Shown here: positions 41,956-54,710 of the stretch, one piece after another
How positions within the stretch are numbered: the first letter of the stretch is position 1
Layout of the letters: each line of letters starts with the position of its first letter
Made by a program: the position numbers and the translations under genes
The notes under the pieces: generated by a model
Told to the model about the DNA's origin: nothing
Database searches by the model: none
Seen by the model: only the letters and a program-made list of their open reading frames with translations
Source: Myxococcota bacterium
GTDB lineage: Bacteria > Myxococcota_A > SURF-8
Direction of reading: 5' to 3'
Assembly (NCBI GenBank): GCA_963674735.2
Contig: CAXXQS010000002.1
Coordinates: 1,024,001 to 1,088,000, forward strand
Length of the DNA: 64,000 nt

Positions 41956-42700
41956 GAAGGCTCCCTCGATACACCGTTTTCCAAACGGCTACTCGGGATA
42001 AGCGAGTTATCATTCATTTATTGGCCAAGGTTGCGCCATCCCCGAACGATGGGCAACAAGTTGCCCCTCCTACTATTCTTGAGAAAGTTTGCGTGATCGC
42101 CCCTCTTCCACCCCGTGTTCGCCGACGGGTCCGGGCGGCGGAGAGAGCGCGAGGACTGTCCGAGCCGGACGGCGTCCGGCGAGTTCCGCAGCGCCCGCCG
42201 CTTGGGCGCGGGGACGTTGGAAAACGGCCGAGGCGAACCCCGGGCGTCCTTTCTTTCGGTTCCCTTTCTTTGGACGCGCAAAGAAAGGGGACAAAAAAAC
42301 GATAAGCCGCACTAGCGCAAAGCCGGGAGCCCGTCGGGAGATGCGCGCCAGCTGGCGGAAGGCTCCCTCGATACACCGTTTTCCAAACGGCTACTCGGGA
42401 TAAGCGAGTTATCATTCATTTATTGGCCAAGGTTGCGCCATCCCCGAACGATGGGCAACAAGTTGCCCCTCCTACTATTCTTGAGAAAGTTTGCGTGATC
42501 GCCCCTCTTCCACCCCGTGTTCGCCGACGGGTCCGGGCGGCGGAGAGAGCGCGAGGACTGTCCGAGCCGGACGGCGTCCGGCGAGTTCCGCAGCGCCCGC
42601 CGCTTGGGCGCGGGGACGTTGGAAAACGGCCGAGGCGAACCCCGGGCGTCCTTTCTTTCGGTTCCCTTTCTTTGGACGCGCAAAGAAAGGGGACAAAAAA
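41956..42700. repeat. Tandem duplication (period 402 bp, about 340 bp identical) of stacked palindromic repeats
   Basis: GGCTCCCTCGATAC at 41959 and 42361; identity extends to GGGGACAAAAAA; duplicated shadow ORFs in the track. Confidence 0.95.
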
Positions 42701-46865: not shown

Positions 46866-48869
46866 ATGGCCAATGAAACCTTCAAGCTGACCTCGCGCTA
46901 CCGACCGACCGGCGATCAGCCGCAGGCTATCGATGCGCTGACCGAAGGCATCGAGCGCGGCGACAAACACCAGGTGCTGTTGGGCGTGACCGGCTCGGGC
47001 AAAACCTTCACCATGGCCAACGTCATTGCCCGCCTCAACCGTCCGGCGCTTGTTCTGGCTCACAACAAAACGCTCGCGGGCCAGCTCTATGCCGAATTCA
47101 AAGAGCTGTTCCCTGAAAACGCGGTGGAGTACTTCGTCAGTTATTACGATTACTACCAGCCCGAAGCCTACCTTCCCAGCTCGGATACCCACATCGACAA
47201 AGAAGCCACCATCAACGACGAGATCGACAAAATGCGCCTGTCGGCCACCCGCTCGTTGTTGGAACGCAACGACGTGGTGATCGTCTCGTCGGTCTCCTGC
47301 ATCTACGGCTTGGGTTCCCCCGATGCCTTTGAAGGTCTGGTTGTCTTTTTAAACGAGGGGCAGGAGGTTTCCCGCGATGCGGTCATCCGCCAACTGGTGG
47401 AGATCCAGTACGAGCGCCACGACATGGATTTCCATCGCGGCACCTTTCGCGTGCGCGGCGACCGGCTGGATATCTTTCCGGCCTACGAAAACGAACGGGC
47501 CATCCGCGTCGAGTTCTGGGGAGACGAAGTGGCGGAGATCAGCGAAATCGAGCCCCTGCGCGGAACGACCCTGCGCAAACTGATCAAATGCGCCATCTAT
47601 CCGGCCAGCCACTATGTCACCACCCTGCAGCGCCGCCAGAACGCCATCCGCGCCATCCGCGACGAACTGCGCGAGACGATTCCGTTTTTCCGCAAACAGG
47701 AAAAATTAATCGAGGCCCAGCGCATCGAACAGCGCACCCAGTTCGACCTCGAAATGCTGCAGCAAATGGGCTATTGCAACGGCATCGAAAATTACTCGCG
47801 CCACCTCACCGGACGCGGGCCCGGCGATCCGCCCCCCACCCTGCTGGATTTCTTTCCCGAACCCTGGCTGCTGTTCGTGGATGAATCGCACGTGAGCATT
47901 CCGCAGGTGGGCGGCATGTATCGCGGCGACCGTTCGCGCAAGCAAAACCTGGTGGACTTCGGTTTCCGTCTGCCTTCGGCGCTCGACAATCGTCCGCTGA
48001 AATTCGAGGAGTTCGAGGCGCGCCTCAACCAGGTCGTCTATGTATCGGCCACCCCGGCCAACTACGAGTTGGAGAAAACCGAGGGCGTCTTCATCGAACA
48101 GGTCATCCGCCCCACCGGCCTGGTCGATCCGACATTGGAAATCCGCCCGGCCGGGCAGCAGGTGGACGACTTGCTGGAGGAAATCCGCCTGCGGGTGGAA
48201 CGCAAGGAGCGCGTGTTGGTCACCACGCTGACCAAGCGCATGGCCGAGGAATTGACCGACTACTACACCGACCTGAAGGTGCGCGTGAAGTATCTTCACT
48301 CCGACATCGACACCTTGGATCGCATGAAGATCATTCGCGATCTGCGGCTCGGCAAGTTTGACGTGCTGGTCGGCATCAACTTGCTGCGTGAAGGCCTCGA
48401 CATTCCCGAAGTGTCGCTGGTGGCCATTCTCGATGCCGACAAGGAAGGCTTTTTGCGTTCCGAGCGGTCGCTGATTCAGACCATCGGGCGGGCGGCGCGC
48501 CATGTAAGCGGAACGGCCATCCTATACGCCGACCGGATCACCGATTCGATGAAGCGCGCCATCGACGAAACCGACCGCCGCCGCAAAAAGCAGCTTGCGT
48601 ACAATCAGGCGCACGGCATCACGCCGCGCTCGATCGTCAAGGCGGTGTCGGAGGGCGGCATCTACGCCGAGGGCGATTACACCGTGGATCGGCGCTTGCC
48701 TAAAAATGTGGCCGCCAAAGAGATGGGGCCCGAAGAACGGCGTCAGAAGATCAAGAAACTCGAAAAAGACATGCTGCGCGCCGCCGAACGGCTGGACTTC
48801 GAAAAAGCCGCCGCCTTGCGCGATCAGCTTCTGGAACTCAAAAAACGCGACCTGCTGCCGGAGCGCTGA
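46866..48869 (+). CDS. uvrB: Excinuclease ABC subunit B
   Basis: [40 protein letters not shown]. Confidence 0.97.
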
Positions 48870-49058
48870 GGCGGCATCTCCGGCTCACACCATCCCGTTC
48901 CATTCCTTGATTTGTTGGCAGATTTCAGGTGAGTCGAAGTAATTTCTCAGCCGGCATTATTTCATATCAAACGGATGCCATCGTCTCACAAACCACGTTC
49001 GGGAGGCTGTGTAAACTCTTTGATACACACAGTCAGCCAGTAGCGACTGTTATCGGTG

Positions 49059-49994
49059 TCAAGCGAAATTCGGGTTCCAGGCTTCGTTTTTCCGCATCAT
49101 CGTGTTGAGAATGAGGACCAATTTTCGCATGCAGGCCACCACCGCCGTCATCTTCGGTTTGCCGCGTCCGACCAGCCGCTGGTAGTGTCCGCGAATCACC
49201 GGGTTGTGTTGAATCGCCACCAGCGTCGGCATGTAGAGCGCCGTGCGCAGGCGATGACGACCGCCGCCGGTCATGCGTTTACCCCGAAACGTTCCGCTGT
49301 CCCGATTCATGGGCGCCACGCCGATCAACGCCGCGATCTGCCGCCGGTTGTAGATCCCCAGCTCCGGCAGATCCGTCACCAGAAGATTCGCCGTGCACGC
49401 GCCGACGCCCGGCATCGTTTGGAGCCGCGCGGCCCGGTCGCTGCGCTCCCGATCCGATGCAATGGCCGCCGCGATGGCCCGATCCAGCCGCTCGATTTCC
49501 CGTTCGATCACCTCCAGAATGCGGTGCAGGCTTTGTCCGATCGTCCGATCGCCCACGTGTTCGGTGCGGTTTTTCTCCATCGTGCGCATGGCGACCAGCT
49601 GCCGCCTCCGTGAAGACAGGGCTTTTAACAGGAGGGCGGTTTCGCCGAGCGTTTCGTTCGGTGCGGGACGCATGGCGGCTGCGTAGCGTGCGATGATGCC
49701 CGCATCGAGTCGATCCGTTTTCGCCATCACGCCGACGGCGCGGGCATAATCCCGGATGCGCCGGGGATTGACCACCGCCACCGGCCAACCCGCTTTCTGA
49801 AGACGTTTGCACAGCTCCCGTTCGTAGCCGCCGGTGGCTTCCATCACGACGCCCTCCACCTCGATCCGCTTCAACGAACGGACGAAGCGTGTCATGCCGG
49901 CTTTGGTGTAAGCGTAGCGGACGCACGTGCTTTCGCCGTCGACGGCGACATCGAAAACGGCTTTGCTGACGTCGATCCCGATCCATTTCTTCAT
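49059..49994 (-). CDS. IS110 family DEDD transposase/recombinase
   Basis: GIDVSK, MEATG, KTDRLDA (DEDD); PGVG, G.AP..RDSG (catalytic Ser region), KMTAVVACMRKL. Confidence 0.95.
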   Translation of the reverse strand: MKKWIGIDVSKAVFDVAVDGESTCVRYAYTKAGMTRFVRSLKRIEVEGVVMEATGGYERELCKRLQKAGWPVAVVNPRRIRDYARAVGVMAKTDRLDAGIIARYAAAMRPAPNETLGETALLLKALSSRRRQLVAMRTMEKNRTEHVGDRTIGQSLHRILEVIEREIERLDRAIAAAIASDRERSDRAARLQTMPGVGACTANLLVTDLPELGIYNRRQIAALIGVAPMNRDSGTFRGKRMTGGGRHRLRTALYMPTLVAIQHNPVIRGHYQRLVGRGKPKMTAVVACMRKLVLILNTMMRKNEAWNPNFA

Positions 49995-49997
49995 GGC

Positions 49998-50200
49998 GCA
50001 CCCTTCCTTGCCAATACGGGCTCATTTCGATTACAATGGCCCCTGCGACTGTTCGGGTTTTCCCGGACGAAACGGACGGCGGATCCGGCTACAAAACGGG
50101 CTCATCAGGCCCCAGGATGGGACGATCTCGCCGCCCACCACGGCCTCCCGCTTGCTACGGGAGGTCGTTTCATCTTATCATCACAAACGATGACAGTCGC
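49998..50200 (-). ncRNA. Putative IS110 bridge RNA (5' hairpin, target-binding loop, donor-binding loop)
   Basis: Minus strand: CCTCCCG/CGGGAGG hairpin; CCCATCCT and GTAG match target GCCCATC-CT-AC; AACAGTCGC and CAAG match donor AACAGTCG-CT-TG; ends approximate. Confidence 0.8.
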
Positions 50201-50219
50201 TTGAAAGGGATAATACAAG

Positions 50220-50284
50220 GATGGGCAACTTGTTGCCCATCTTCTACACTTGAATCGCGATGGGCAACAAGTTGCCCATCCTAC
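50220..50284. repeat. Pair of inverted GTAG-type REP palindromes (left copy interrupted by the IS110)
   Basis: GATGGGCAACTTGTTGCCCATC ... GATGGGCAACAAGTTGCCCATCCTAC. Confidence 0.85.
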
Positions 50285-50300
50285 TCCAGCTACTCCAGTT

Positions 50301-50981
50301 TTATTCCTGCAATGAATTGCTAAACGTATTGTAAGGCTCGTAAACGGTCCGGCAACCGGTGAAGACGGCCTCCATGGCGTCGTCGTCTTCGGGAAAGGCG
50401 AATTCGGGGAGGCAGTGCGTGATCGGCGGGATGAAGGCGCGGATACACGCGCGCAGATCGGTATGGGTGTCGCATGCTTGGTCCGTTACCTCGTGCGCCA
50501 GGGCATCGTCGATCGTCGCGGCGGTCCAGGTCGGGAAGGCGCTGGGTGGGTTGATCATATAACCGTAAGGCAACTCGGCCCATCCGGTAACGCGGGTGTA
50601 TTCGGAGTTCGCGTTGCCGTCGAACAGACCGTATTCGGGACCCAACCACGCATACTTGAAGGCGGCGGTAGGCTGAGAAGTCGATACATCAGCGCGGTGG
50701 CTTTCGCACTGCACGGCTTTTCCACCCGCTTCGCTGGGGGCGAATCGCACCCAGGCCGCCTGACAAAAAACGCCTTCGCAACCCGAGTCGGCGCTTTCAC
50801 AGGCTGCGATCCATCCGTCAAACTCGCTTTCCGAATCCGTCGCGACACCCGAACTCGCCTGCCAACAGCGCGGCTCGCAAGCGGCATCCCACCCCGAATC
50901 GTCGCGGCTCGATCCGCAAGCGCTGATCAAGGCGATCCAAAGGCCGATGACGACCGACAACCACAGCTGTTTGATGAACAT
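50301..50981 (-). CDS. Cys-rich hypothetical lipoprotein
   Basis: Lipobox ISAC; about ten further Cys; AAGGAG RBS. Confidence 0.75.
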   Translation of the reverse strand: MFIKQLWLSVVIGLWIALISACGSSRDDSGWDAACEPRCWQASSGVATDSESEFDGWIAACESADSGCEGVFCQAAWVRFAPSEAGGKAVQCESHRADVSTSQPTAAFKYAWLGPEYGLFDGNANSEYTRVTGWAELPYGYMINPPSAFPTWTAATIDDALAHEVTDQACDTHTDLRACIRAFIPPITHCLPEFAFPEDDDAMEAVFTGCRTVYEPYNTFSNSLQE

Positions 50982-51839: not shown

Positions 51840-54710
51840 TTATGCCCGCGCCTTTTTGCGCGGTTTGCGCGGTTTGCGCGGTTTCGATGTGCGATCTTTG
51901 AGCTTGGACTTCAGGAAGCTACCGGTGTAGCTGCGTTTGCAGGCCGCCACCTCTTCGGGCGTTCCGGCCGCCAGCACCGTCCCGCCGCCGTCGCCGCCCT
52001 CCGGTCCCAGGTCGATCAGGTAGTCCGCCGTTTTGATCACATCCAGGTTGTGCTCGATCACGATGACCGTATTGCCCGTTTCCACGAGTCGGTTCAACAC
52101 GTCGAGCAGCTTGTTGATGTCGTCGAAATGCAGGCCGGTGGTGGGTTCGTCCAGAATGTACACCGTGCGGCCGGTGCTGCGCTTGGACAACTCGCGCGCC
52201 AGCTTGATGCGCTGCGCCTCGCCGCCCGAAAGCGTCGTGGCCGCCTGCCCGACCGCGATGTAACCGAGCCCCACATCGCGCAGCAGCTTCAGCTTGTTGC
52301 GGATAATGGGCACGTTTTCGAAAAACTCGAAGGCCTGGTTGACCGTCATGCTCAAGACATCGCTGATGGTTTTGTTTTTGTAGCGCACTTCCAGAGTTTC
52401 GCGACTGTAGCGCTTGCCGCCGCACTGCTCGCAGGTGACGAACACATCCGGCAGAAAATGCATCTCGATGCGATTGACGCCCGCGCCTTCGCAAGCTTCG
52501 CAGCGCCCGCCCTTAACGTTGAAGGAAAAGCGTCCCGGCTTGTAACCGCGCGCCCGCGACTCGGGCAGTTGGGCGAACATTTCCCGGATGGGCGTAAACA
52601 CGTTGGTATAGGTGGCCGGATTGCTGCGCGGCGTGCGTCCGATGGGCGACTGATCGATGGCGATGACTTTATCCACATGCTCCACACCCACAAGCGAGGT
52701 GCAGTGGACCGTCCGTTTGCGGCGGCGCAGTTTTTGTTCCAGCGTCGGCTGCAGGGTATCCACCACCAGCGAACTTTTTCCCGATCCCGAAACCCCCGTG
52801 ACGCACACCAGCATGCCGAGCGGAAACTCGACCGCGATCTCCTTGAGGTTGTTGGCGTTGCAGCCTTTGAGCGCCAAGCGCCGGTTGTCGGGCTTGCGCC
52901 GCTTGGCGGGAAGAGGGATTTCCAGGTCGCCCGTCATGTAACGACCGGTCAGCGATTTTTTGCAGGCCTTGATTTCCTTGGGCGTTCCCTGCACCACCAC
53001 TTCGCCGCCCCGCACACCGGCCCCCGGACCCATGTCCACCACATGATCGGCGGCCAGAATCGTGTCTTCGTCGTGCTCCACCACGATGACCGTGTTTCCC
53101 AGATCACGCAGATTCAACAGGGTTTTCAGCAAACGATCGTTGTCGCGCTGATGCAGCCCGATGGAAGGTTCGTCCAGAATGTACAGCACCCCCACCAGCG
53201 AGGAGCCGATCTGGGTGGCCAGACGAATGCGCTGGCTTTCGCCGCCGGAGAGCGTGGCCGAGGCGCGGTCGAGGCTCAGGTAGTCGAGACCGACGTCGTT
53301 TAGAAAGCCCAGCCGCTCGCGAATTTCCTTCAAGAGCCGCTCGGCGATCACCAACTCGCGCGGGGTCAATTCAAGGCTACTGAAAAACGCCAGGCTGTCA
53401 CGCAGGGTATGGCGGGTCAACTCGATGATGTTTTTGCCCGCCATTTTCACGCTCAAGGCCTCGGGGCGCAGGCGATTGCCGTGGCAGGTCGGGCAGAGCT
53501 GGTAATTCATGTAGCGTTGCAGCTCTTCGCGCACGCCTTCCGACTGCGTTTCACGGTAGCGCCGCTCCAGGTTGGGAATCACTCCCTCGAAGGGACGCAT
53601 GTAGCTGTAGTGGGAATCCTCGCCCTCGTGGTCGAACAGAATTTCGCGGTCCTGGGTGCCGGTGAAAATCGCCGTCTGGACTTTCTTGGGCAGCTTTTTA
53701 AACGGCGTGTTCATCGACACCCCGAAATCGCGCGCCACCGATTCCAGCATGAACGCGTAGTAGTAACCGGTCCGTGAACTCCACGGAGACACCGCCCCCT
53801 GGTTCATGCTCAATTCGTCGTTGGGCACCACCAACTCGGGATCGAAGTACATCTTCATGCCCAAGCCGTGGCAGTCGGGACACGCGCCGGTGGGATTGTT
53901 GAAGGAAAACAGGCGCGGCGAGATTTCGGGATAGCTGATGCCGCAATCGGCGCAGCCGAAGCGTTCGGAAAAGGTGATCGATTCGCCCTCGGGCGTCTCC
54001 ACCGTCGCCACGCCGTCCGCCAGCGACAAAGCCAGCTCGAAGCTTTCGGCCATGCGCCCGGCGATGCCGTCGCGCACCACCAGACGATCCACCAGAATTT
54101 CGATCGTGTGCTTCTTTTTACGGTCGAGCTGGGGAATCTCCTCCGAGAGATCGTGGGCGACGCCATCCACCCGCGCGCGGATATAACCTTCGCGCAAAAA
54201 GCGCTCGAAATCCTTGCGGTATTCGCCCTTGCGCTCGCGCACCACCGGGGCGTAAAGCAGGATCTTGGAGCCTTCGGTCATGCGCAGCACCTGGTCGGCC
54301 ATCTGCTGCACCGTCATGCGTTCGATCGGCTTTCCGCAGTTATAGCAGAACGGTTGCCCCACACGGGCGAACAACAGGCGGAAGTGATCGTAAATCTCGG
54401 TCACGGTGGCCACCGTCGAACGCGGATTTTTGCTGGCGGTTTTCTGCTCGATGGAAATGGCCGGGCTCAAGCCCTCGATGCTGTCCACATCGGGTTTGTT
54501 CATCTGTTCGAGGAACTGCCGCGCATAGGCCGACAGGGATTCGACGTACCGCCGTTGCCCCTCGGCGTAAAGCGTATCGAAAGCCAGCGAACTTTTGCCC
54601 GACCCCGACAAGCCGGTGATGACGATGAAACGGTTGCGTGGCAAGGCCAGAGAAATATTCTTCAGGTTGTGCTCGCGCGCACCCTGTATGACGATCTGTT
54701 TATCCGACAT
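51840..54710 (-). CDS. uvrA: Excinuclease ABC subunit A
   Basis: GAREHNLK, two GxSGSGKS Walker A motifs, LSGGE, DEP, zinc fingers; basic [11 protein letters not shown] tail. Confidence 0.97.

Follow-up and report, generated by a model that had tools for sequence, protein, structure and literature searches.

A probable bridge-RNA-guided insertion sequence of the IS110 group and its REP target sites in a Myxococcota genome

An IS110-group element lies on the minus strand of the window, the whole 64-kb stretch of DNA that was analysed. Two long open reading frames (46866-48869 on the plus strand and 51840-54710 on the minus strand), the translations of which we take to be UvrB and UvrA, flank the element and the pair of REP palindromes beside it. 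The element, its single gene and its site of insertion are laid out as follows.

49042..50219, minus strand: whole IS110-group element, with a CT core at both junctions (boundaries common to eight 100%-identical copies)
49059..49994, minus strand: recombinase gene, 311 aa, with DEDD residues D8, E52, D94 and D97 and Ser233 (open reading frame, Pfam, NCBIfam, structure alignment)
49040..49051, minus strand: left donor AACAGTCG (49051-49044), core CT (49043-49042) and right target AC (49041-49040) (sequence, copies, vacant sites)
50220..50241, no strand assigned: REP palindrome GATGGGCAAC-AA-GTTGCCCATC, the 3' arm of which is the left target, followed by the CT core at 50219-50218 (0 mismatches; 0 matches expected in shuffles; flank at 8/8 copies)

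The left flank terminates in ...GTTGCCCATC-CT, with the core at 50219-50218, and the element starts with TGTATTAT at 50217. The right end terminates in ...AACAGTCG-CT, with the core at 49043-49042, and is followed by AC at 49041-49040. The body and one core add up to 1176 bp (50217 down to 49042), within which the non-coding left end accounts for 223 nt (50217-49995), while the right end extends 17 nt past the stop codon (49058-49042). This is the layout of the IS110 group, in which a long non-coding left end lies 5' of the gene and the right end is short. The target reconstructed from the two flanks is CCCATC-CT-AC, and the donor formed at the circle junction is AACAGTCG-CT-TG. Within the element, ATA precedes ACAGTCG and TAT follows CT-TG, as PMC11208160 describes, yet an additional 14-nt subterminal inverted repeat is present.

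Eight copies, 100% identical across the queried 1186 nt, were found genome-wide, and the open reading frame is intact in every one of them. Relative to the palindrome, all eight point the same way, between GATGGGCAACAAGTTGCCCATC-CT on the left and AC on the right. Copies at unrelated sites, which would have spoken against the reading given in an earlier note on this DNA, were not found: 8/8 copies sit at CCCATC-CT-AC. Eight identical copies argue for recent movement, and the element has apparently been active recently. The right-end 12-mer occurs a ninth time in the genome, by chance and outside any copy of the element. In the contigs of three public DNA runs from one study, the element is a single collapsed repeat contig with a depth of ~79-91, versus a flank depth of 6-11 in runs X1 and X2; the contig depth is in line with about eight or more copies. 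No joint was found in the contigs of these three runs.

The recombinase matches PF01548 (DEDD_Tnp_IS110, 3e-22) and PF02371 (Transposase_20, 8.3e-19), and scores 218.3 bits against NCBIfam NF033542, "IS110 family RNA-guided transposase", the cut-off of which is 140. Its only solved relatives in the PDB are ISCro4 (9t56), the best structure match (131.5 bits, E = 3.2e-37, residues 4-300), and IS621 of E. coli (8wt6, E = 1.3e-34). The protein shares with IS621 the same domain set and the aligned DEDD and Ser residues. In contrast, IS621 is a distant match at 123 bits, and its chain has 328 residues versus 311 aa here. Residues D8, E52, D94, D97 and S233 align with D11, E60, D102, D105 and S241 of IS621; the correspondence was counted through the alignment, the chain numbering being offset by 2, and residue names were taken from PMC11208158. 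The same five residues are invariant in 26 relatives, in line with the intact DEDD/Ser recombinase that had been proposed from the sequence.

The nearest protein among 5.8 billion is 64% identical, and many relatives of 311 aa were found at 50-64% identity. The closest loci are labelled Myxococcota, and the lineage has metagenome-assembled relatives only. The best relatives listed in a plasmid search, at 42.7-45.5% identity, go by the generic name 'IS110 family transposase' only; no close or specifically named relative occurs among the matches listed. These figures fit the description "probably uncharacterised ortholog" given earlier.

REP palindromes recur in this genome. With up to 2 mismatches allowed, the 22-nt pattern has 4 matches in the 64-kb window and 0 in shuffles. 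Units of the form GATGGGCAAC-NN-GTTGCCCATC map in the window to 42048-42069, 42450-42471, 50220-50241 and 50259-50280, and REP units are often found in inverted pairs, about 17-40 nt apart. The genome holds 42 strand-wise perfect matches, which are read as 21 sites since the pattern is its own reverse complement, and 75 half-sites. The uninterrupted (vacant) target CCCATCCTAC is found 17 times in the genome, and 17/17 vacant targets are inside REP units. Together with the 8 occupied sites, this means that 8/25 sites are occupied. Because all 17 vacant sites are REP units, a possible gate formed by the REP stem-loop is inseparable from the paired target in this genome. A depletion of the 10-bp target outside REP was considered and dropped: zero non-REP sites are unremarkable, since among the 1260 10-mers of equal composition, which have a mean count of 8.3, 41 are absent and 143 are present no more than once. 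IS621 inserts into REP sequences, as does the element described here.

The predicted fold of the 223-nt left end consists of a 5' hairpin and, behind it, two stem-loops, each interrupted by a large internal loop. The hairpin, the two modules and their guides are listed below, in the order in which they would be transcribed.

50144..50164, minus strand: 5' stem-loop, 8 bp and 5-nt loop, -15.2 kcal/mol (fold)
50074..50136, minus strand: target-binding loop module (loop 1), in which a 12-bp outer stem and an inner hairpin enclose an internal loop of 11/12 nt (local fold, covariation)
50114..50121, minus strand: left target guide CCCAUCCU, with the letters of the left target and the core as read on the top strand (sequence, copies, fold, left-flank covariation)
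50088..50092, minus strand: right target guide GUAG (50092-50089), complementary to CT-AC, with C at 50088 in the putative handshake position (sequence, copies, fold, covariation)
50000..50058, minus strand: donor-binding loop module (loop 2), in which an internal loop separates the short outer stem ACCC/GGGU from an 8-bp inner hairpin (local fold, covariation)
50045..50053, minus strand: left donor guide AACAGUCGC, which repeats the terminus of the right end, AACAGTCG, and adds the core C (columns nearly invariant in 48 homologs)
50005..50010, minus strand: right donor guide CAAG (50010-50007), complementary to CT-TG, with GA (50006-50005) in the putative handshake position (CAAGG conserved in alignments)

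Folded whole, the 225-nt end has a z-score of -3.47, and 0/200 shuffles fold as well. The four guide motifs are located where the earlier note had placed them (CCCATCCT at 50114-50121, GTAG at 50089-50092, AACAGTCGC at 50045-50053 and CAAG at 50007-50010), the shared scaffold GGGGCC...ATGAGCCCGT is present in both loops, and the 5' hairpin is present at 50164-50144. When the modules are folded locally, all four guides are unpaired and located in internal loops, each on the expected side, again as anticipated. In the minimum-energy fold of the whole end, the 5' guide of loop 2 is paired with the 5' part of the left end and is not free.

In loop 1, guides of 8 nt on the 5' side and 4 nt on the 3' side match the flanks, and do so at 8/8 copies. 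The target match is short, as 8 + 4 nt sharing a 2-nt core make 10 bp. The target had originally been read as GCCCATC-CT-AC; CCCATC-CT-AC stands, whereas the 5' G is unmatched, since U at 50122 of the RNA mismatches this G of the REP, and the left match is 8 nt including the core rather than 9. In loop 2, 9 nt (AACAGTCGC) on the 5' side and 4 nt on the 3' side (CAAG versus CT-TG) match the donor. The circle junction AACAGTCG-CT-TG was read correctly, but the claimed match of the 5' guide holds for the C of the core and not for the T: this guide reads GUCGC-A, which matches C and mismatches T.

In IS621, once strands have been exchanged, the two nucleotides behind each 3' guide pair with the other DNA at positions 6-7 (PMC11208158). 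A similar handshake may occur here: the G in front of the donor core is a possible partner of the C after GUAG, and the TC in front of the target core is complementary to the GA after CAAG. With these nucleotides included, the 3' sides read GCTAC and TCCTTG, which are exactly both junctions of the integrated element.

A scan of positions 48800-50500 with Rfam 15 gave no match to a bridge RNA family. Sub-threshold microRNA-type matches on REP palindromes and a weak sX15 match were also returned, none of which is meaningful.

Homologous elements were collected by scanning one genome per species, which yielded 80 loci; 47 distinct left ends were aligned with that of the window, giving 48 rows. 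In this alignment, 83.1% of the cells are paired; column shuffles give 69.9%, and shifting the partner by 1-3 columns gives 32-47%. Among the 48 left ends, 32/37 pairs changed on both sides, and 0/500 shuffles reach any of five measures, although relatedness among elements inflates both this and the permutation tests below; there are still 27 distinct 7-nt left targets. Both modules contribute: the outer stem of the target module is 88.2% paired, with 11/12 pairs changed on both sides, and its inner stem is 87.5% paired, whereas in the donor module the outer stem is 85.9% paired, with CG-to-UA double changes, and the inner stem 86.5%. A 5' hairpin (>=6 bp, -8 kcal/mol or better) is found in 43/48 homologs despite unrelated sequence, which accounts for the poor alignment of this hairpin between elements.

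Guides and flanks also change together. Element boundaries were set by a rule independent of the guides (left, last CT followed by TGT[AG][TA]; right, ACAG[TC][CT]GCT after the open reading frame), and guide offsets of 0-2 (left) and 0-3 (right) were allowed equally for cognate and non-cognate pairs, since column-based extraction misplaces the guide by one position in some elements whose loop has an additional nucleotide. On the left (36 elements), cognate guides match 6.25/9 non-core positions of the flank versus 4.70 for non-cognate guides; on the right (37 elements), the values are 3.65/5 and 2.42. The totals are reached by 0/10,000 permutations on either side, which bears out the guide-target covariation across homologous elements that had been suggested as a check. 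Twelve of the 48 elements were outside the left-flank test, and 11 outside the right-flank test, owing to the lack of a boundary by the rule or to a contig end. The strand sense is that expected for a bridge RNA: 5' guides have the sequence of the top strand, and 3' guides have its reverse complement. For instance, element L038 has the left flank TTGACACCT, the right flank GA and the guide UCAG, and element L067 has the left flank GGTCATTCCT, the right flank TCGTC and the guide GACGAAG. Right guides are longer in alphaproteobacterial members, as in L067, where GACGAAG faces CT-TCGTC.

Loop 2 and the matching ends are nearly invariant in the homolog alignments, while loop 1 is variable; the same pattern of a conserved donor loop and a variable target loop was reported by Durrant et al. 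(PMC11208160). Where it faces the core T, the 5' guide of loop 2 has A in 18 of the 48 elements, T in 17, C in 11 and G in 2; the core itself is invariably CT wherever the right end was mapped. The varied base opposite a constant core suggests that the 5' donor guide does not need that pair.

A covariance model, R1, was built on both modules. In its own genome, R1 finds exactly eight places, which are the eight copies, and no orphan RNA. It also places the RNA directly upstream of the open reading frame in seven distant loci outside its build (L078, L065, L085, L080, L070, L077 and L081). R1 has no match in L083, L086 and L088, nor in the 5'-truncated loci among its sources.

The left end could be viewed instead as a leader that controls translation of the recombinase, with the protein itself reading the REP hairpin and the guide-like matches resulting from common descent. 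The 3' arm of loop 2 and GGAAGGG are 6-13 nt before the ATG, so that folding could mask the ribosome-binding site; moreover, all targets are REP stem-loops, and a stem-loop in the target adds specificity for ISPpu10 according to a preprint (10.64898/2026.03.19.712850). We hold this explanation to be highly improbable. It does not predict the covariation of loop 1 with both flanks, the 27 distinct left targets or the strand sense of pairing, and the homologs target sequences unlike the REP of the window. A structural gate would, besides, add to guidance by RNA and not replace it. Positions 50001-50010, immediately 5' of the ATG at 49994, read CAAGGAAGGG and comprise the 3' donor guide, the putative handshake GA and the 3' strand of the outer stem of loop 2. 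This segment also resembles a ribosome-binding site for the recombinase gene, so that folding of the RNA may be tied to translation.

A promoter is predicted to form when the two ends of the element are joined, from one box in each end.

49057..49062, minus strand: -35 box TTGACA in the right end, overlapping the TGA stop codon (6/6 to consensus)
50210..50215, minus strand: -10 box TATTAT, of the promoter formed on joining of the ends (5/6 to consensus)

The joined ends give TTGACA-17 nt-TATTAT, which agrees with the consensus at 11/12 positions, as judged by sequence only. In 34 elements with both ends (that of the window included), examined at a fixed 17-nt spacing, the -35 box matches at least 4/6 positions in 33, and both boxes do so in 27. 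In the integrated copy, TATTAT faces only a weak REP-derived -35 box, TGGGCA. According to PMC11208160, excision switches the bridge RNA on, and RNA expression from integrated IS621 copies is described as weak in PMC13626964. A promoter predicted to be weak in the integrated form and strong at the junction agrees with both reports.

The observed anatomy, the identical multi-copy insertion at one site, the structural and guide-flank covariation, the conservation of the junction promoter and the protein homology point to a complete IS110-group insertion sequence that very probably moves by bridge-RNA-guided recombination. As far as sequence can tell, the defining features of an IS110-group bridge element are found here, the length of the subterminal inverted repeat being the one oddity. 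In the cycle that we infer, which covers RNA production, RNA-protein binding, the chemistry and present-day activity, excision would join the right and left ends at the CT core, and the junction would build a strong sigma-70-type promoter, TTGACA-17-TATTAT. This promoter would transcribe the left end into an RNA of ~200 nt and probably the recombinase gene behind it. The RNA would fold into the 5' hairpin and the two internal-loop modules, of which loop 1 would read the target and loop 2 the element's own junction. A tetramer of the 311-aa DEDD/Ser recombinase would hold both loops and exchange strands at the shared CT core, whereby the circle would be inserted 2 nt after the 3' foot of the REP palindrome.

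The element might belong to the bridge-RNA family and have copies that are immobile in this host, i.e., the fossil of a past burst in which promoter, RNA or protein is cryptically defective. Such a state would be compatible with the contigs of the three DNA runs, which show no joint, with the mismatch of the loop-2 5' guide at the core T and the mismatch of the left guide at -9, and with the distribution of the element: of 30 related genomes searched, four carry members of the clade (54-62% identity) and none carries the exact element. However, the mismatch at the core T is common among relatives (31/48), the eight copies are 100% identical over 1186 nt with intact open reading frames, the catalytic residues are all present, and the junction promoter is 11/12. 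An immobile fossil therefore seems very unlikely, and a bridge element that still moves, or did so recently, is the reading we prefer.

The element resembles IS621 in having a long left end, a very short right end and a CT core, in the order 5' hairpin, target loop and donor loop, with 5' guides of 8-9 nt and 3' guides of at least 4 nt, and in the promoter rebuilt at the circle junction (PMC11208160, PMC11208158). Fold and covariation both recover this layout, and the assignment to an IS621-type bridge RNA made in the earlier note stands. In contrast, the target CCCATC-CT-AC and the donor AACAGTCG-CT-TG differ from those of IS621, and the predicted RNA measures ~200 nt, versus 177 nt in IS621 (PMC11208160, PMC11208158). 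ISPpu10 and ISPpu9, IS110-family elements of Pseudomonas putida, are likewise reported in multiple copies, each at the same conserved intergenic palindrome, with a stem-loop 5' of the paired target, but differ in host, REP and guides. Elements of the IS1111 group have the same recombinase family and a long subterminal inverted repeat (7-17 bp in IS1111; 14 nt here). However, their seekRNA/bridge RNA is in the right end, which measures 17 nt in the element of the window, where the RNA lies in the long left end instead. An RNA in the long left end is the layout of the IS110 group, according to PMC11208160.

Thousands of bridge RNAs were predicted by Durrant et al. in 2024, who found a bridge RNA in 85.7% of IS110-group elements (PMC11208160). 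The element is a new example of the mechanism described in that year and no new kind of system, and it leaves the picture of how IS110-group elements work unchanged. It provides a compact bridge recombinase (311 aa, 1176 bp), the natural target and donor of which are fully readable. With 8 occupied and 17 vacant sites in one genome, it is a well-defined candidate for screens of bridge-editor orthologs. It also offers a natural case for the question of whether a REP stem-loop beside the paired target adds specificity.

The subterminal inverted repeat has one arm inside the left end.

50188..50201, minus strand: inner arm of the 14-nt subterminal inverted repeat; the outer arm consists of the last 14 nt of the right end, 49042-49055 (93% complementary)

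The inner arm is located 17-30 nt inside the left end, and upon joining of the ends the repeat extends to 16 nt with one mismatch. Its 14 nt compare with a subterminal repeat of 2-3 bp in the IS110 group (PMC11208160). A family-wide subterminal repeat was considered and rejected, as a 9/10 match is found in only 3/34 elements (that of the window included) and an 8/10 match in 2 more; the repeat is common only to the element and its two closest relatives. For the joined single strand, a hairpin of -14.9 kcal/mol is predicted, the stem of which contains the CT core and the loop the -10 box; 0/200 shuffles are as stable. In the RNA fold, the repeat can pair with the 5' guide of loop 2. The repeat might be no leftover: a hairpin at the junction of a circular single strand could supply the 'bottom strand' for the loop-2 5' guide, or the 5' end of the transcript could mask this guide until the protein binds. 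We consider such a role unlikely, but if it were true, the repeat would connect the mechanism of IS110-group elements with the long subterminal repeats known from the IS1111 group, and would fit the single-strand excision reported for IS621 (10.64898/2026.08.31.748434).

Two minor observations concern the RNA region and the flanks. On the plus strand, 50008-50037 holds a promoter-like sequence, TTGCCA-18-TACAAT (10/12, a match to consensus only), antisense to loop 2. In a Myxococcota metagenome-assembled genome, L010, one of 8 copies of a 62% relative, has TC after the right-end CT, versus AC in the other seven, and could reflect either an off-target insertion or a rearrangement between copies.
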